Part shown: one piece after another, positions 27,701 to 36,318 of the stretch
Position numbering within the stretch: position 1 is the stretch's first letter
Layout: each line of letters opens with the position of its first letter
Assembly (NCBI GenBank): GCA_001244265.2
Contig: CDLV01000013.1
Span: forward strand, 1,178,001-1,242,000
Direction: 5' to 3'
DNA from: Microbotryum violaceum
Taxonomy: Eukaryota
DNA length: 64,000 nucleotides
The notes under the pieces: model-generated
Databases searched by the model: none
The model's input: the letters and a program-made list of their open reading frames with translations, nothing else
What the model was told of the DNA's origin: nothing
Made by a program: the position numbers and the translations under genes

Positions 27701-28020
27701 CCATTGAAGCGAGAACGGCGCTTGCAAGCATACGCCCGGATACGTGTTGCCGGGGAAGGGGCAGCAGCACACCAATCACACGTAGTCGGGATACGAGGGA
27801 GCACTCACTCTCCATGAGCACCGGCACTCTTTTTGCATGCCCCACAACAGGGACGACCGGCATCGCAGCGCACCTTGCGCGAGCGACAGGTCGTACACGA
27901 CGATCCGCGCGGCAGCGAAGGAGCGTGCCTGAGCCCGTGCGACGACAAGGGGGCACCGGACTGGATCGCATGCAGGAACGAAGGCGTCGTCGGAGCACCG
28001 GGCGTGCGATCGGGTGGCAT
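24713..28020 (-). CDS. Zn(II)2Cys6 fungal transcription factor with fungal-specific middle homology domain
   Basis: SCTTCRSRKVRCDAGRPCCGAC, then after an intron IECNY...KVAELEAKL. Middle region GWPPALPSPPLLHRLIDVFF, HPKFPLPALLHGM, LIMLHEP. Confidence 0.9.
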
Positions 28021-28149
28021 CCTAGGAGCGCTGGTTGATGAGTTGATCGAACGCGACAACTCTCGAGGGTGTGGTGTGGGTCAGGTCGGTCAGGAGTGAA
28101 AGAGCGGTTCAGCGCTGGCAATGACGACGCCGGTCACGGGAGCTCACGC

Positions 28150-28466
28150 GGCTTGTATACATGTAAGGATATATCCTTACACATGTTAATGAAATCTATT
28201 AGATAAAAAAAAATGAGTTAAGGTCAATACACAACCAAATCTGTTCATCTTGATATTGTAACATCCACATATAACTATTTCTGAATGGTGTCTGCAAGGA
28301 CTACATGGTAGCATGTGTATTGCAAGACTTGTAGTGATTCAAAATTTCTGTGTCCTTACCGCACCTCCCGTATCCTTACCGCACCCTCGTATCCTTACAT
28401 GTGTCGACATGTGTAAGGATACGCCCGCGCGCGCACGTGACATGCGTAAGGATACGCTCGCGCGCA
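28150..28466. repeat. Left TIR of the MULE
   Basis: Matches the right TIR apart from a 30-bp indel and a few substitutions. Contains repeated TAAGGATA/TATCCTTA motifs. Confidence 0.92.
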
Positions 28467-28762
28467 AAGAGCACTGGCTGCTGCTGGTGAATAATTGACT
28501 CTTTCCGCACACCAGTGGTTGTCAAAGTATCGCCATGCCCATTTTTGCACTAAGTTTAGTTATACATACTATTGCTGACCGCTATCATAGCCCCTACTGT
28601 ACACTACATTAGTGATTGACAAGGCCAAAACTTCACTGGACCACTGGGGCACAACTTTGTGAGTCAAGGTTACTTGCCATCAACATGAATGTTCCCCACT
28701 GTGATTTCCTTCAGGAGCACTGCACCGCTGGAAAACATTGTAAGAGGAGAGCATCGTCAGCT

Positions 28763-30326
28763 CTACTGATCTGCTTTTTTGGCGTTCCCGACACTCACTA
28801 TCTCGCATTCATGAAAAAAAGCCGACGCATCTTCCATCTTCCAGACACCTTGTCCTTCTTCAAGAGTCCCTTTGGGTGGTAGACTTGACACTTTAATGCC
28901 GATATCGGTAGGATCGGAGGGCTCATGGTATAGACTCCACATTTCGTGCCACTGCCGCGTTAGCATTAGGTTGAAGGCTTGCAAGAAGTTCAATGACTCC
29001 TCTTCTAGCTCGTAGAAAAGAACGGAAACTGATCCGCCAGCGTTCCTGTCCCCTATCGGCCTAGCGAGAGAGCCTTTGATTGCGTCGAAATGATAGCATG
29101 CGGCCTCTTGCCCGTATCCAACCGTCGCGTTCGTAACGAAATGTGAATTGTTGATGTTGTACACTCCTGACCGAAGGCGCCAGACCATCTCTGGCATTTG
29201 GTCCGAAACACCGAAGCGTAGCTCAGCTGGGGCCAGTGAATGTTCCGGGTAAATATTGTTGATGTTGATCACAATCACACGGGGGAGCGAGGTGATTGAA
29301 ACGAATTGCACCTAAGAGCCTCCGGGGCAATTGCGCTTGTGATGCCGACGGCCTGAGTTCTTTGCCTCTGTGTACAATTTCAACGGTTGCCCAACGATTG
29401 AGGCGAGGACGTCCGACAACGTTTCCAGCGAATGCGAAGGCAGGTGGAGACTTGAGATGAGAAGGGGCCAGTCAACCACAAACTGTCGTCTTGGGGACAC
29501 CTCAATCTGAATGCAGTTGCAGGCAGTGCAATACCCGGCTCGTTGAAGATGTAATTCGACGAGAGTTCGGTCGGGATCATTCAACGTGACAGTGCTTGGC
29601 AGAACCGGATGATCGACGGTGAACGAGTGAAGTGTCTCGAGCCAGGTCTGCCGAAAAAAGTGATGATTAGCGTCCAGTTTAAATCGTCTTGGGAGGGCGG
29701 GGTTCGCTAAGTGATTGACTGACTACTGGGCTACTATAACTCCCCCGCTTAAATGGAGTTGTAAAATGGCTTCCGCGCTCTTTCGACATCCCAACCACAG
29801 TGGAAATCATCCGTTCTCGTAATTGTGTGTATGCTTCAATTGCGTTCGCCGCCGGTTTCATATCAAACTTTCGAGCCAATGCTGTGTATTCGCGAATCGC
29901 ATCCCATAGCTCGAGTGCCAAATATCGAGGGTGGAGCCTCAACACCATCTCATCGCCAAGTGGAGGAATCACGTAGGCCGTATGGGTGTTAAGGATATCC
30001 AGACACTGCAGCCATGGTTCCAATCCGTTGGCGACCGAGAGCAATGCGATAAGCGTTGAGTCAATCCAGCAAGAATTATCGCTCCACGGGCCTTGGATAA
30101 TGACGACTGGCCCGTCTTCACCTGATCGAAGCCAGAAGTCTGCGTGGAGCTGCACAATCGTGCTACCGAGCGATGTCGACGTCGATGTCTTGGGCGGAGC
30201 GAATTTTACCCTTGGTGCAGATCTAGAGTCCTCTGGGAGCTTGTCACTGGTGCGCTCGAGTGACGTCGACGTCGAAGCAGGTTTTGGCGTGGCGATTTTG
30301 TTGTGGATTTGGACTTGGAGTACCAA
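28763..30326 (-). CDS. Transposon-borne USP-fold (papain-like) cysteine protease exons
   Basis: Cys-box-like GPWSDNSCWIDSTLIALL (ORF 29679-30326). CxxC (GYCTAC) in 29312-29584. His/Asp-box-like GVYNINNSHFVT...CYHFDAIKG...SVLFYE in 28763-29311. Confidence 0.6.
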
Positions 30327-30370
30327 TGAATGAATGAAGATTCGCTGTAGCTACACGGCGTTGATAGATG

Positions 30371-30547
30371 ACCTATTGTGAGATAGAGTATCGCCAAGGT
30401 CAATCAACTTGTAGCAGGCGAATGGGCGAGATAGACATCGAGTGTGTGTTTAAATGTATTACAACTAACCTATTGTGAGATAGAGTATCGCCAAGGTCAA
30501 TCAACTTGTAGCAGGCGAACGGGCGAGATAGATATCGAGTGTGTGTT
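30371..30547. repeat. 80-bp direct duplication (period 97) inside the MULE
   Basis: ACCTATTGTGAGATAGAGTATCGCCAAGGTCAATCAACTTGTAGCAGGCGAA(T/C)GGGCGAGATAGA(C/T)ATCGAGTGTGTGTT at 30371 and 30468. Confidence 0.92.
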
Positions 30548-31003
30548 AAAGAAGAAGGAGAGAGTGAACGAGGCCAGAGCCTTAGACAGTATCCGCGTGC
30601 AAGCCACCTCTGAGTCCAATCAATACGCCACACCGCCATCTGCCTCCATCCGGCGCCGCGCCACGCGCGCGCCAACTTCCCAATGCCACAAGTCCCTCTG
30701 GACCGCTGACCCTTTACTAATTTCCCACAACAGATTTCTACCTTTCTTGCAGATTTCGATGGCGCCAACTCCGACTTGGATGCCACCATGGACAGGGGAA
30801 TGTCGAATGCGAACGTACATGTCCTCTTTGCCTCCGATTGTGATTCAGGTTCCGACAAGAGGAAGGCCAATCGTTTTCGAGGTATCCGGTAAATTCGACC
30901 ATTGGGGGCTTCCAAATTTCGTGCATTGTGCTGCGCAAGAACTGTGAGACGGAGGATAAATCAGAGCAGGGATTCCGTCAGTAAGGCCTCAGCGCCTCTG
31001 CAC

Positions 31004-33824
31004 TCAGTCAACAGTCTGGGGCGGAGGCGTACGTATTTGGGACAACTCCGTTTCTTCATTGAGCGCCCTCACAGCCATAGGGACAACGGGGACTCGTCGC
31101 GATGGGCCGCTGAAATCTGAGCGGGGAGGACTACCTTTCGATTTGGAATTGGACGTTTGATGGAGCTTGATGGAGCGATCCGTCGGGGGAATGGCCTCGG
31201 ATGAATTGCAATGAATTGAGGGCGTCAATCCAACGTCTTCTGATGATTCGCTCGAACTATGCTCGTCAGACGGCGGGTCAGGAATCTTGCGCTTGTGGGG
31301 GTAATCAACAAGTGCTGAGCCTTTTTTGGAGGCCATCGACTGCGCAGTGGGCCCATTGCCCTGCCTTGACCGGTTCTTTGGTTGCTGCCGGGAACGATTT
31401 GACGTGGAAGGAGGTAATTTGGTTGATTCGCTCAGTGGTGGTGTTGCAGGACCCTTTGACAGGTCTGAAGGTCCTTGTGGTGACTCAGAAAACCCGATGC
31501 CAGCTAGACGAGCAGGTGCAGCGAACGAGATCGAAGGCTCAGGCATGTTGGCGTCACTGACGTAGGATGAAGGTACCCGATTGCGTGACTTGATCTCTTT
31601 GATATGAGCGCGGACGTTGCCTTGCTCGTGATAAGTGGAACTCCTGACATAGCCGTCTGTTTTCAAAGCAAAGGCGAGAATGGTTTTAGATGAGGATAAT
31701 GGGCTGGTGGTAACGCTATGCCAGGGCCTTACCGGTCGCATGACTTTCAATTCGGTCTGTCATTTTCGCGAAGTCGATAAGTCGCATCACCCCTTCCACC
31801 GGTCCAAAGCGTTCGCCACCACATGAATGGATTAGGAGCCAGTGGGAAGATTCCACCGCATTTGTTGTGGTAGCCACGCATCTTTCTGCGGATCCATTGA
31901 GTTCCTTGAATACCACATTTCGAATCGCCGGTCGTGTCCACCATTTGATCCAATTCTCTGACACAGGAAACTCGTCGATTGTGCGCTTTGCTATGGACTC
32001 AATCGATGCATGGGACTTCGCGTTGCGCATGGTGTTGACCAGCATTGCAAATCGTTCGTGCTCCGTTTGCGTACTGAGATGTCGGACCCCGAACCTCCTG
32101 ACCTGCTCAATGAAGTGAAAGGCGCACCCGCTTGCCGCCTTCTCGCCAATCTGAATAGCCTCTGCAGTCCACTGTGACACCTGATTGGGTGTGACGTTCA
32201 AGCGTCCCACATCTGCGGTCTTGCGTGCCACGTATCAATCCGAAATGGCTTGGCGAAGACCCGAAATCTTCGCGCTTGAATAATCGACAACAAATGTGAC
32301 TCCGTTGACGATGTCCTCCACGCTATAATTGGCATCGTCAAGAATCTGGAATAGGTGCGCAAAATGTCGGCGGTAGAAGCCCGATCGCTCGTGGTTGCCG
32401 ACGGAGTACAGGATCGGAAACCAGCGACGAGCGCTTGGCGAATAGCAGACCGTGGCGAGCAACACCCAATTGTCGCGAAAGTAGGTGTTGTGAGCGTCGG
32501 TAGGCCATCCCAAATTGCCTTCGACTAGCCGGTCGTCAATCGTTTCCGAGAGCCTCACTTTCATCTGAGGAGTCTGGATGCCAAATGACGTCTCAGAGTC
32601 GGTTAGCGAATTGGAGGTGATCTTCGACTTCGGCCGCGACCCATCGTTCCTGGGTTGCTTCCGAGGGTCAGGATCGTGTATTTGCTCGGCAAGTGGCTGC
32701 CCTTGGCGCTGTCCCGGTATTTCGATGTACGGAGGCAACCGGCATTGGCAACAGCTTCAATAGCTGACCTCAACGTGTCGGGCAGGGCTACATTACGCTT
32801 ACTGTGGCCCACTCTTGGTGCGTATCTCGAGATTGATCGAGTGCTGTCGAATACAGGGCAAATCTCAGAGGCGGACGGCCGATGACGAGGGTCCTGCGGA
32901 AATGCGGTCATTTGTCCCATGCGCAGCTCGGCGGCCGATGCTTGTGGAGCGGCTTTACGCAATTGTTGCAGCTCTTCCAGATGTTGCGGGGACGGACGCG
33001 ACACCGGAGGCGGAGGATGCAAAGATATATATTTCCCCCTGGCATTCCTCACGCTGCCCTCGGGCAATCGTAGCGGAGCACAGGATGTGCCTCATCGGTC
33101 CGTTACAGCTTGTGATTGGACACGGCGGTAACTCGTCTGAAGGCCTCTCAACGTTTGGAGTGAGGTGCTTGCGGGTTGCAGCCTTCTTGGGGCGTCCTGT
33201 GATGAGCTGTGGAGTCTCCTCCTGAAACAACTTCGACCTACTCGCTGTCGACAGCGATGTGTAAGGTCGACGCTTGCCAGGGCATGATTGATCACAACAG
33301 ACGAACACGCCCATGCAACGCCTTTTGCTGTACTTGCTGTACTCGACGTTTGCATCCAAACGCGGGCCTTTCCATCGCCCTTTTGAATCGGTTCGAGATG
33401 ATGACGCCGAGAAAGCCCACATGTGTGACAAGCCACCGCTCGAGCCTGGATCCATACGAACAATGAGGACGTCGCCCCAAGTCCCGTTGGGCCGCCAAGG
33501 ATCAAGAACAATCTCTTGTGGGTATGCTTCGAGCATCAAGTCCGTCATCGTTGTCCTTCCTTCACTATATGTTGGTAAATTCGCATGGTCTTCACTGTTG
33601 ACGAGCTTGTCATCCGTTGAATATGGTTCGGTGTTCGGACGTAGATTGCCGGAGATCCTGTCGCTTGGAGATGCTTCACGCTTTTCCCTGACAAGCAAGT
33701 CGTGCTTGGAAGCAGAAGGTGCGCCACTTGGAACAGGGGCATCTACCCGGCCTTGAGGTCTTGTAGTGATATTTACGAATGGGAGTCGAGCCTTGATGTG
33801 CTCGTAGACCTGTGACATTTGCAA
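31004..33824 (-). pseudogene. MULE transposase with N-terminal GCM-like Zn domain; interrupted copy
   Basis: GCM-like KRRCMGVFVC..SC...RP...CPITSCNGPMRHILC. DDE core TDAHNTYF, RRWFPILYS, FVVDYSSA, GCAFHF (CxxH), WIKWW, TTTNAVESSH. In-frame TGA at 32235-32237 and frame changes near 33000 and 32700, which could be introns. Confidence 0.8.
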
Positions 33825-34449
33825 TCAAGAGTCAGCTCAGCGACTAAAGCTCAACGACGTAGAATCCGTCAACTCATGAAGCTATACGCACTCTCAAGGT
33901 AATGGTTGCTTCTGCTGACAATGAGTCGATGTCGAGTACGAAGCCGGTCAACCCGAGAACCTTGTCCGAAGATTCGGTCGCAGCAGTAAATGCTGCGAGT
34001 TGGTCGTACCGGCAGGAGGCAAGACATGGAGTCGAGTGAGTAGATGACGTAGCCGCGTCGTCGACCACCCAGTAGTCGAAGCAGGAGTCCTCTGTACAAA
34101 GGCACAGATAAGTCGCCAAATTAAACGGTTAGTAACTGGCTGAGTGGCCTGTCAACATTGCTTGGGAACCGATCTAATCTTGTCTTGCATACCTTGGAGA
34201 GCCAGGCCAGTTAGCTCAGCAACCTCTTCCAAAATATCTCGTAGATAGACGAAACAATGTCCTGTCTCCGTGAAGTTGATGGACACCAACAGCGAAAATA
34301 TCATCGGCACGTTAGTCGCCAAGAGAGGTTTCAAGGAAACCTCAGAGTTGACCATCAACACTAAGAAAGGCAAGCGGACAATATCAATTTCCAGTGAAGC
34401 CGTTTGTTAAGCAGGCTGGGAGAGCGCATGTTGATGTAAAAGTGCACCA

Positions 34450-34607
34450 CCTATAGAGGGGGCAGCGGTAGGATGTTACGCAGCGCAGTGTCAGAACTGA
34501 TAGTTGAGGAACAAGTGATTGAAGTATTGCAACTAACCTATATAGGTGGCAGCGGTAGGATGATGCGCAGCGCAGTGTCAGAATCGATAGTCGAGGAACG
34601 AGTGATT
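34450..34607. repeat. ~70-bp diverged direct duplication inside the MULE
   Basis: CCTATA..GG.GGCAGCGGTAGGATG...CGCAGCGCAGTGTCAGAA..GATAGT.GAGGAAC.AGTGATT at ~34450 and ~34537. Confidence 0.85.
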
Positions 34608-34750
34608 AAAGAAAAGATAAACAAGGGAGTCTGCTTTGCGAAGGCATAGGCCCACGCGCAAGACTATAATTCACTCAGACACTAAGTCTAATCCACTGCC
34701 TTAAAACCAATCGAGCCTCCGGGCGCGCGCCTCGCCTCGTTACCGATGGC

Positions 34751-35494
34751 CTACCATCTAGACAACACATGTGGCGTACCTTCAAGCTTAAGAGTCGTAT
34801 TTTGATGCTTGGGAAGAATGGAGCTGTCCTTTGGAATAGCCTTGGGTTGTGAAACGCTTAGACGGCAGAGGTTCGGAGCTAATGCTGGTGAAAGCGAGCC
34901 GACTTGGAGGGTAGAAGCGGAATTCACACTCTCAACACTGCTTTGACTGCGCAGCGACGGCCAACCGGGATCGCGGTTCTGGGAGCACAGGAGAGGCATT
35001 GTTGACTTCTCTTGCTTGATGGTGTGGTGGAAGGGAGTGTCGTGGGCGAGCCTAGTGGAACAAGGTGAGTCATTGTCACGGTCGTCCTTGTGATCGTTGT
35101 GCTTATCGTCCACATAATTGTCACAGTTCTCCTCGCAGTCCTCTGCGGACTTGATGCGATTAGGCAAGTCGCTTGTACGATCGGTGATAGGAAATTCTCC
35201 TGTTGGAGTCGGGGATTTTGATAGCCGCGGTGCGGACACCGTGCAGGTCAATGCTTCAGCTTGAAGGTCGCCAGAATCGTCCTGAGGATGCGCTGAGTTT
35301 GCCGACTCGGGGACCGACTGGCCGTTTCCTTTCCTGATTCGACGATTGGTTCCTACCGTTGATTGGCGTTTGATGCTTGGGACTTTGAATCTCGACTTGG
35401 GAGTCCGCCATTGGGCCCGGTCTCCAGCTCCAGAACGAGTCCGAGCCCAGGGCCCGGCGTCACGGTCGGGAAGTTGGCGGTTCCGCAATCTCAT
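34751..35494 (-). CDS. Low-complexity ORF just inside the right TIR; possible first exon of the MULE protein
   Basis: Long open frame (MRLRNRQLPDRD...), basic then acidic, on the same strand as the transposase. No recognisable domain. Confidence 0.35.
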   Translation of the reverse strand: MRLRNRQLPDRDAGPWARTRSGAGDRAQWRTPKSRFKVPSIKRQSTVGTNRRIRKGNGQSVPESANSAHPQDDSGDLQAEALTCTVSAPRLSKSPTPTGEFPITDRTSDLPNRIKSAEDCEENCDNYVDDKHNDHKDDRDNDSPCSTRLAHDTPFHHTIKQEKSTMPLLCSQNRDPGWPSLRSQSSVESVNSASTLQVGSLSPALAPNLCRLSVSQPKAIPKDSSILPKHQNTTLKLEGTPHVLSRW

Positions 35495-35669
35495 TGATGA
35501 AAGATTTGAGTCCGTGCCTGCTGGCACAAAGCTGGAGGTCGCAATTGGCTGGTTCGCAAAATTCAAACAGTGCCACGGTGTTGACGTCGATGGGCGGTGT
35601 GGGGACAATTAGGTGAACAAATGTGAACAAAGGCTTCGAGCTGAGTGCGCCTCCTGTCGTTCCACATGC

Positions 35670-35993
35670 CACGTGCGCGCGCGGGCGTATCCTTACACAT
35701 GTCACGTGCGCGCGCGGGCGTATCCTTACGCATGTCACGTGCGCGCGGGCGTATCCTTACACATGTCGACACATGTAAGGATACGAGGGTGCGGTAAGGA
35801 TACGGGAGGTGCGGTAAGGACACATAAATTTTGAATCACTACAAGTCTTGCAATACACATGCTATCATGTAGTCCTTGCAGACACCATTCAGAAATAGTT
35901 ATATGTTGATGTTACAATATCAAGATGAACAGATTTGGTTGTGTATTGACCTTAACTCATGTGTAAGGATATATCCTTACATGTGTCGTGGCC
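35670..35993. repeat. Right TIR of the MULE with three ~32-bp subterminal units
   Basis: CACGTGCGCGCG(CG)GGCGTATCCTTAC(A/G)CATGT three times at ~35670-35766, then the reverse complement of the left TIR. Confidence 0.92.
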
Positions 35994-36318
35994 AGAGCTC
36001 ACGCGCTCACAGGCGCACGTCGGGTGGCAGCTGGCGGCAGTCGCAACTGGGCGGCAGACTGAACGGCGCGTTGCCCGGCGACAAGCATCAGCAGGGGCGC
36101 GCACGAGAGCACACCTCGGCTCAGGCTCCACAGCGCGCAGCAAAGTCTGCGTGCAGCTCGAACTACACGGAAGCGTCCCCACTGGCCAGACTCCGGTCTT
36201 AGTTGCTGGAGGAATGGTTTGGCGAAGTTGGATTGCAATGCAGCCCAAACAACTAATAGTGGCAGCAGATGGCGCCAAAGATCTCGACACTCGTCAGCAA
36301 GCCCCTGAGCGGGGGGGA

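Follow-up and report, generated by a model that had tools for sequence, protein, structure and literature searches.

What does a transposon of the anther-smut fungus Microbotryum violaceum encode besides its transposase? The question is raised by an element located in a stretch of 64,000 nucleotides (NCBI GenBank assembly GCA_001244265.2, contig CDLV01000013.1, positions 1,178,001 to 1,242,000 of the forward strand), which is termed "the window" here and whose first letter is position 1 of all coordinates. An earlier note, made from the letters of the window, had assigned the interval 28763-30326 to a "USP-fold isopeptidase" carried by a Mutator-like transposon. The analysis described here suggests that the interval is probably an accessory gene of a Mutator-type transposon family, which would encode a very divergent papain-like thiol isopeptidase of the ubiquitin-specific protease (USP) type. 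The structures of the element and the gene, the conservation of the gene, its restriction to one genus and the occurrence of spliced copies were computed directly, and the nature of the protein is argued from its motifs, their order and spacing, and its nearest neighbours in a protein language model.

The USP-like gene and its window copy

The three open reading frame (ORF) pieces described in the earlier note were all found on the minus strand: piece 1 (29679-30350, including ...QGPWSDNSCWIDS...), piece 2 (29312-29722, including ...GYCTACNC...) and piece 3 (28763-29311, including ...NINNSHFVTNATVGYGQEAACYHFDAIKG...VSVLFYEL...), which carry in turn the motif WSDNSCWIDS, a CxxC and the His/Asp motifs. 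Their location inside inverted repeats, downstream of and on the same strand as transposase-like ORFs, was likewise borne out. Since the pieces are 96-98% identical to annotated Microbotryum proteins, they represent real coding sequence and not chance ORFs. The reading of the pieces as three exons had to be revised: the gene contains a single intron of 76 nt and a nonsense codon. The intron, of phase 0, links pieces 1 and 2 in frame, while pieces 2 and 3 belong to one exon, share one frame and are split by a TAG codon alone. An intron between pieces 2 and 3 (e.g., an 84-nt candidate, GTTGGG..TTAG) was ruled out, because other copies carry a sense codon at this site and read straight on.

The gene features of the window copy are listed below. 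The codon positions of the Cys, CxxC, His and Asp motifs were computed from the translation, residue numbers refer to the 441-residue C-terminal part of the annotated protein P0003, and A2 denotes an alignment of 12 family members.

28763-28765, minus strand: stop codon of the USP-like gene, at the end of the 28763-29311 ORF; the C-terminus ...NAKKADQ is that of P0003, P0004 and P0005.
28766-29647, minus strand: 3' exon of the USP-like gene, 294 codons (translation P0001; 98% identical to P0003 residues 1268-1561).
29084-29086, minus strand: putative Asp codon (D335, invariant in A2).
29141-29143, minus strand: putative catalytic His codon (H316, invariant in A2).
29312-29314, minus strand: in-frame TAG, a copy-specific nonsense codon according to the sequence, four of four runs and the protein models.
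29519-29530, minus strand: CxxC codons, within the 3' exon.
29648-29723, minus strand: 76-nt intron, GTCAGT...CAG, phase 0, predicted by enumeration and then seen in run X2.
29724-30298, minus strand: 5' coding part of the USP-like domain, up to the insertion point of a long terminal repeat (LTR) (translation P0002; 98% identical to P0003).
30069-30071, minus strand: Cys codon of the Cys box WSDNSCWIDS.
30299-30732, unstranded: nested solo LTR of 434 bp, TG...CA, with a 5-bp target site duplication (TSD) GATTT at 30294-30298 and 30733-30737, interrupting the USP-like frame.
30733-30941, minus strand: upstream coding continuation of the USP-like ORF (...RIPRKRLAFLLSEPESQ...MVASKSELAPSKSARKVEI), which continues the frame of 30293 when the LTR is taken out; also present in P0003, P0005, P0006 and P0019.

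The contigs of four public runs were compared with the element, one of which (X2) is only guessed to be RNA, as inferred from its five canonical skips. At position 29312 all four runs have G for C, turning the TAG (read as X in P0001) into TAC for Tyr, the residue found in all protein models covering the site. The TAG thus marks no exon boundary; it is a nonsense mutation in this copy, although an error of the assembly is possible. The 76-nt intron is seen as a skip from 29647 to 29724 with CT..AC ends in one X2 contig (depth 80.8), and its removal joins ...YSSPV to TWLETL..., the junction present in P0003-P0006. X2 contigs lack exactly this intron and four canonical introns of the transposase-like gene, which fits transcription and splicing, and intact, spliced copies of the element apparently exist elsewhere.

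The solo LTR is skipped (30293 to 30733, with 5 letters common to both sides) in contigs of X1, X2 and X8. It is a dispersed repeat, since the loose contig ends at 30299 and 30732 show many different flanks. Accordingly, the top of the interval given in the earlier note (30299-30326) is LTR sequence and lies outside the gene. The LTR also holds a tandem duplication of ~98 bp, and because contigs of X2 and X6 skip 30424-30520, other LTR copies have one such unit. Due to the TAG, the LTR insertion and a frameshift in the transposase, the window copy is non-functional and dead three times over; the ends of this dead copy are still 99% alike. At the 3' end of the gene, 82 nt (28740-28821) that span the USP-like stop codon are absent from one X2 contig (depth 28.9, side 28), the skip having GT..AG ends on the plus strand. 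The skip may reflect an antisense transcript entering from the left inverted repeat, or a deletion variant.

Conservation in two Microbotryum subfamilies

When 1.84 billion cluster representatives were searched by phmmer with the 294-residue exon, six matched at E<=0.001: five belong to the same family and one is a repeat protein, and no host USP was retrieved. Word-seeded protein searches yielded 5 and 10 matches, all from Microbotryum. In these two and a third protein search every match bears the name M. silenes-dioicae or M. saponariae, which points to the basidiomycete genus Microbotryum. Judged by these searches, the USP-like gene family is lineage-specific and so far found in Microbotryum only.

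The family comprises two subfamilies that are ~50% identical. In A2, H316, F334-D335, W303 and 20 other columns are invariant, and SCW[IL]DS occurs as the Cys box in the window and in six of six members covering the site (the P0003 part, P0004, P0005, P0006, P0011 and P0014). Among the remaining six A2 members, four models begin downstream of the Cys box, and P0010 and P0015 read a different exon there. Hence, the Cys, His and Asp residues are kept in other copies and in both subfamilies, a check that the earlier note had called for. Per 40-column window the domain is 50-63% identical between the subfamilies, whereas the upstream linker is poorly conserved and gap-rich, and this difference argues for selection on the domain. 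The differences listed within the gene number at least six, including two synonymous, two non-synonymous, one stop-to-Tyr and one intronic change, too few for an estimate of dN/dS; another 239 differences are spread over the element as a whole.

The USP-like gene also persists in deletion derivatives, which have lost the transposase core and kept its first ~120-140 residues together with the USP-like domain. Derivatives of this type are represented by the architectures of P0008, P0010, P0014 and P0015, gene models in M. saponariae, and by an X2 skip from 30846 to 35221, which corresponds to a deletion of 4,374 bp (30847-35220). In M. silenes-dioicae, the gene model P0016 combines the 3' exon of the USP-like gene with an ORF for a reverse transcriptase (RVT_1, E 2.8e-21); this is most likely a retroelement inserted in a gene copy and merged with it by the gene predictor.

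These patterns bear on the notion that the interval is a fragment of a host USP gene, passively captured in the manner of Pack-MULEs and devoid of a function for the transposon. According to parts of a published account, Mutator-like elements (MULEs) do acquire host sequences (PMC6446971). Yet, the phmmer search returned no host USP, the domain and not the flanking linker is conserved between the subfamilies, and the domain has an intron of its own and is retained in the deletion derivatives. Passive capture therefore appears highly improbable.

Evidence for a USP-type domain

According to the proposed model, intact copies would encode a domain of ~400 residues, the nucleophilic Cys of which would lie in the motif QGPWxxxSCW[IL]DS and open a helical "thumb". 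A degenerate zinc ribbon (CxxC ... HxxxC) would be followed by a "palm" with SH[F] as the putative general base, an F-D pair 19 residues later and a final VLFYELE strand. The order of Cys box, CxxC and His-Asp box proposed in the earlier note is present in the sequence, and the order and the block spacing are those of USPs. The triad order, Cys in an N-terminal box followed by His and Asp, is conserved in the family and agrees with USPs at the motif level, with a His-to-Asp spacing of 19.

USPs (MEROPS C19, Pfam UCH PF00443) include minimal giant-virus enzymes of ~330 amino acids, and the Microbotryum domain shares with them the succession of Cys box, CxxC, LP-x-hydrophobic strand, [YW]xLxxxV, His box, F-D and LFY strand. 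Domain size is similar, as is the spacing (His-Asp 19 residues here versus 17-18 in the comparators). In contrast, the position -5 from the Cys is Trp instead of Asn or Gly, H-x3-C stands in place of the second zinc-ribbon CxxC, and a longer helical region separates the Cys box from the CxxC. The gene is transposon-encoded and confined to one fungal genus, and the domain lacks a significant match to USPs by hidden Markov model (HMM) or profile.

Giant-virus USPs were gathered as comparators by a DNA pattern for the Cys box, and six of six examined are Pfam UCH proteins (E 1.7e-35 to 3.8e-57). In a permissive alignment made by hhalign with 46 of them, the domain is collinear over its whole length, from the Cys box to the final LFY strand, with Cys facing Cys and His facing His. 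The paired blocks are SCWIDS/TCYMNS, YCTAC/SCTKC, LPRVIVINI with the ..vLIllLKRY block, VWRLRSGV/SYRLSGIS, SHF/GHY and VLFYELE/CLFYRRI. The auxiliary USP blocks (zinc-ribbon CxxC, LPxxLxxxLxRF, YxLxxVxxH and YxLFY) pair in register in this permissive alignment; the second CxxC is absent from the family.

The USPs are moreover the nearest named neighbours of the domain in a protein language model. Of the 30 ESM-Atlas clusters nearest to P0006, 17 carry UCH PF00443 (best 0.94, with 164 shared features); the other 13 are unnamed, and in two of the three listed ones Basidiomycota is the taxon recorded most often. For the domain of the second subfamily (P0014 residues 333-759), compared with named clusters only, UCH heads the list with a set of 13 hits (0.92) and comes up again at ranks 10 and 13; the unrelated Pox_P4B appears at rank 15. 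In a ranking test, an HMM of the Microbotryum family was run on 505 giant-virus ORFs (99 USPs and 406 others from the same contigs). USPs took 25 of the top 30 places (area under the curve 0.815), a number reached by none of 25 column-shuffled HMMs, the maximum of which was 20.

Evidence against a USP-type domain and the alternatives

A number of results weigh against the USP assignment. The Pfam families UCH, UCH_1, Peptidase_C98 and CoV_peptidase match none of the 12 A2 members at E<=10, and scans of 12 ORF pieces of the window and of P0001, P0002, P0003 and P0006 gave nothing relevant at threshold. Searches of the PDB by sequence and by profile returned no match, and no family HMM or profile of the USPs (peptidase C19) matched significantly. 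The hhalign comparison with USPs reached a score of 16.7 (E 0.22), equalled in 3 of 40 trials with shuffled columns and in 7 of 40 with shuffled blocks, and a second run (E 0.54) paired a wrong 18-column block. In a segment-wise version, shuffles equalled the real score in 23/40, 4/40 and 4/40 trials. The family scan and the profile-profile comparison, both put forward in the earlier note, thus came out negative, the latter no better than shuffles.

Other profile tests against the giant-virus USPs behaved similarly. The USP HMM scored the two subfamily domains at -2.5 and -1.2 bits, values reached by 44 and 42 of 400 shuffles, respectively. Identities at conserved USP columns amount to 19/66, reached by 5/60 column shuffles and 1/60 block shuffles. 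Among these tests the ranking test alone beat the column shuffles; block shuffles were not clearly beaten (2 of 25 block-shuffled HMMs equalled the result), and the ranking was driven mostly by the CxxC block. The numbers of shared Atlas features, 164 (P0006) and 148, fall below the 170 that is typical of true same-family matches. Two AlphaFold2 models, built from alignments of 9 and 12 sequences, were unusable (mean predicted local distance difference test score, pLDDT, 29.5 and 31.0), so that the Cys-His-Asp geometry was never seen. Real USPs were not added to the alignments, as this would have been circular. A Foldseek search of the PDB with the first model found no match at E<=0.001, which at such a pLDDT is meaningless and speaks neither for nor against a fold. 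Finally, the window copy itself is unable to make the protein.

A lineage-specific accessory protein of another fold, e.g., a DNA- or chromatin-binding or regulatory module, the USP motifs of which are a chance resemblance that misleads pattern readers and language models alike, would account for the alignment-based tests, all at chance level or marginal, for the failure of the PDB searches and of structure modelling, and for Atlas feature counts within the range of "chance hits or distant relatives". However, such a protein would have to match six hallmark USP blocks in the right order and at USP-like spacing, with the three would-be catalytic residues among its few invariant positions. For both ~50%-identical subfamilies, moreover, UCH comes first among the named families, of which thousands were possible, and the preference of the family HMM for USPs over the 406 other ORFs exceeds that of all 25 column-shuffled versions. 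We regard another fold as an unlikely alternative that nevertheless has to be reckoned with.

A second possibility retains the USP fold and dispenses with catalysis: as a pseudo-enzyme, the domain might bind ubiquitin or a ubiquitin-like modifier (Ubl), or it might serve the transposase as a scaffold for docking on modified chromatin. The USP consensus at the oxyanion-hole position -5 is usually Asn, and the Trp found there, together with the missing second CxxC of the zinc ribbon and the extreme divergence of the family, would suit an inactive protein. Cys, His and Asp are nonetheless all kept in both subfamilies, and retention of the triad over ~50% sequence divergence is not expected for a pseudo-enzyme. 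In addition, Trp at -5 is compatible with catalysis in the papain-like protease (PLpro) of coronaviruses. An inactive USP fold therefore seems quite improbable.

Taken together, the "USP-fold isopeptidase" of the earlier note gains from the motifs, their order, spacing and conservation and from the UCH/USP neighbours in the language model, and falls short with respect to Pfam, PDB, profile comparison and structure prediction. A USP fold is fairly probable, a well-motivated inference and not a result, and the USP-like domain is probably a divergent, putative USP-type isopeptidase.

The transposon

The element carrying the USP-like gene measures 7,844 bp (28151-35994) and is bounded by inverted ends ~300 bp long. 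A repeat search of the window identified inverted-repeat arms of 220 nt at 28213-28432 and 35741-35960, which are 99% complementary, and a terminal palindromic pair of 27 nt at 28159-28185 and 35958-35984, which is 100% complementary. An 11-bp direct repeat, GAGCTCACGCG, lies immediately outside both element ends (28140-28150 and 35995-36005). The long ORFs of the element all lie on the minus strand, the transposase-like gene preceding the USP-like gene in the order of reading. The ends and their terminal inverted repeats (TIRs) are as follows.

28140-28150, unstranded: left TSD GAGCTCACGCG, identical to the 11-mer at 35995-36005.
28151-28465, unstranded: left TIR, with the 27-bp terminal palindrome and GTAAGGATAC-type subterminal repeats; six repeat pairs, 91-100% complementary to 35657-35984.
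35677-35994, unstranded: right TIR, forming inverted-repeat pairs with the left end.
35995-36005, unstranded: right TSD GAGCTCACGCG, identical to the 11-mer at the left.

Both element ends (28159-28185 and 35958-35984) begin with the 27-bp palindrome ACATGTAAGGATATATCCTTACACATG; a GTAAGGATAC-type motif comes next in several copies, with GC-rich spacers between them (28340-28465 and 35677-35800). These subterminal motifs are candidate transposase-binding sites.

Parts of a published account give a TSD of 8-11 bp and long TIRs as criteria for Mutator-like elements (MULE/MuDR; PMC6446971), and the 11-bp TSD and the TIRs of ~300 bp, i.e., hundreds of bp, agree with this definition. By its structure, the element is a Mutator-type cut-and-paste TIR transposon. 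The left element end lies ~130 bp upstream of the start of a minus-strand gene for a Zn(2)Cys(6) transcription factor (window 27805-28151; Zn_clus, E 5e-6). Insertion next to this gene represents a promoter/5' region target, as is typical of Mutator-like elements.

The transposase-like gene consists of an N-terminal domain of ~120 amino acids, Cys/His-rich fingers and a DDE-like core (DAHNTYF, VVDYSS, CAFH, TTNAVESSH).

31033-34355, minus strand: transposase-like gene, located by tblastn of P0003 on the window.

MULE transposases feature a D...D...CxxH...E-like motif pattern; a resemblance to this pattern, along with the Cys/His fingers, is recognizable by eye only. In contrast to MULE/MuDR elements, the transposase lacks a Pfam match to MULE (PF10551), Transposase_mut (PF00872), FAR1 or SWIM; no Pfam family matched P0003 at E<=1 or the ORFs of the window, a PDB search gave merely two irrelevant matches (E 0.79 and 1.2), and homologues were found in Microbotryum only. 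The label "Mutator-like", as used in the earlier note, therefore stands on structural grounds, the TSD and the TIRs, and finds no counterpart in a Pfam MULE domain or in a transposase homologue outside Microbotryum. The N-terminal domain of the transposase (..INFTETGHCFV.LRDILEEVAELTGLALQED..) is kept between the subfamilies.

Three transposase introns are seen in X2 as skips with CT..AC ends (31657-31732, 33808-33889 and 34092-34192). X2 also shows an optional 88-nt intron (31473-31560), removal of which would end the transposase ORF near 31434. X1, X2 and X8 have a base after 32731 that the window copy lacks, and the change of frame is visible by tblastn. At ~33023, the X1 and X2 contigs crossing the site carry 17-20 gap positions and X8 contigs break, which suggests a second indel of the transposase. 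Upstream of the transposase start at 34355, the element contains a low-complexity open frame of 285 codons (34751-35608, minus strand), which has no Pfam match and occurs in none of the gene models seen.

Possible fusion of the USP-like domain to the transposase

The earlier note had considered that the protease might be spliced to the transposase. An intron that would produce such a fusion was identified by enumeration.

30942-31032, minus strand: predicted 91-nt intron, GTACGC...TACTGAC...CACAG, with good splice signals; its removal would link the transposase and USP-like ORFs without a change of frame.

Six annotated models (P0003, P0004, P0005, P0007, P0017 and P0019) run from the transposase into the USP-like frame. 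The junction of P0003, P0007 and P0019 (...ELSQI followed by LLAQHN...), or its equivalent in P0017, is that of the 91-nt intron, and P0003 (1,561 aa) and P0004 (1,513 aa) extend to the end of the USP-like domain. The exon upstream of the intron (..VRALNEETE..) is conserved in subfamily 2. The start Met of P0006, a stand-alone model, is Leu in P0003. On the other hand, the fusion joint is absent from the contigs of every run examined, which drop rare forms, and an X2 contig covering 30938-31386 is unspliced at the intron. Fusion is thus predicted by gene models and absent from the spliced contigs, and a fused protein and separate or alternative products are both possible. The protein would be made as the C-terminal domain of a transposase of ~1,560 amino acids, or from a transcript of its own.

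A more far-reaching scenario is tentative and, in our view, doubtful. Intact members would make a single protein of ~1,560 amino acids, a fusion of the Mutator-type transposase with a catalytically active deubiquitinase of the USP class (or a Ubl protease) that has a PLpro-like Trp at the oxyanion hole. The 88-nt intron would switch between a transposase-only and a transposase-protease product, and deletion derivatives consisting of the N-terminal domain and the protease would persist, as the protease acts in trans for the whole family. If true, this would be the first case of a cut-and-paste transposon that has recruited an enzyme of the USP class.

Comparison with transposon-encoded and viral proteases

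Ulp1 (peptidase C48) domains are reportedly found in KI-MULEs, and OTU and Ulp1 domains are said to occur in Ginger elements. The Ulp1 domains of MULEs (KI-MULEs/Kaonashi, CUMULE) and of Ginger resemble the domain proposed here in being accessories of the thiol isopeptidase type that a TIR DNA transposon carries next to its transposase or as part of it. The catalytic order of C48 peptidases is His-Asp-Cys, in contrast to the Cys...His...Asp order of the Microbotryum family, where the conserved Cys is N-terminal to His and Asp and a match to Peptidase_C48 is lacking. Furthermore, the MULEs with Ulp1 domains reside in plants, the present element in a fungus.

The likeness to coronavirus PLpro (CoV_peptidase PF08715), itself a USP-fold enzyme, consists of the Cys box W-x-D-N-x-C with a Trp five residues before the nucleophile. 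PLpro is the sole Pfam match of the Cys-box piece, covering profile positions 107-121 (15 residues) at 11-11.3 bits (E 0.23-0.28) under a cut-off of 26 bits, and the match is missing from the 12 scanned A2 members. The positions -3/-2 vary in the family (SDN, SDD, SNN, HNH), Trp at -5 is the only feature of the PLpro-like Cys box conserved in both subfamilies, and nothing else is alike. The resemblance stressed in the earlier note is therefore best regarded as a curiosity and not as evidence of kinship.

Deubiquitinase domains of the VTD and OTU types occur in Helitrons/Helentrons, where they have been proposed to protect transposition proteins from proteasomal degradation, and VTDs carry an invariant Asp-x-His active-site motif, as stated in parts of the source (PMC9741609). 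Like these domains, which the same parts describe as papain-fold deubiquitinases encoded by transposons, the Microbotryum domain is transposon-encoded and has a putative papain fold (PMC9741609). Unlike VTDs, the family lacks the Asp-x-His motif, as His316 precedes Asp335 by 19 residues, and the carrier is a TIR element and not a rolling-circle element. To judge from these parts, deubiquitinase-type domains encoded by transposons are an established theme (PMC9741609), and if the USP assignment holds, the gene described here would be a variant of this theme in a family restricted to one genus. A keyword search of the open-access literature found no description of a USP-type domain in a transposon, which is weak evidence of its absence from print.

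Implications for transposon biology

A USP-type domain would be expected to remove ubiquitin or a ubiquitin-like modifier from the transposase, or from chromatin at the element. For the benefit to the element, we infer that removal of the modifier may make the transposition machinery more stable or weaken silencing by the host, in line with proposals made for the OTU, VTD and Ulp1 domains that other transposons carry.

Proteases that remove ubiquitin or SUMO have been recruited repeatedly: Ulp1 by plant MULEs and Ginger, OTU and VTD by Helitrons, and tegument and PLpro enzymes by viruses. If the present assignment is true, a USP-class case in a fungal cut-and-paste element would add the largest class of eukaryotic deubiquitinases to the recruited proteases and strengthen the idea that escape from ubiquitin-dependent control is a general need of mobile DNA. 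The family would also give access to a compact and highly diverged USP domain, in which the oxyanion position is taken by Trp and the zinc ribbon is reduced. Microbotryum lends itself to such studies, as the transposon load of its mating-type chromosomes is already being investigated.

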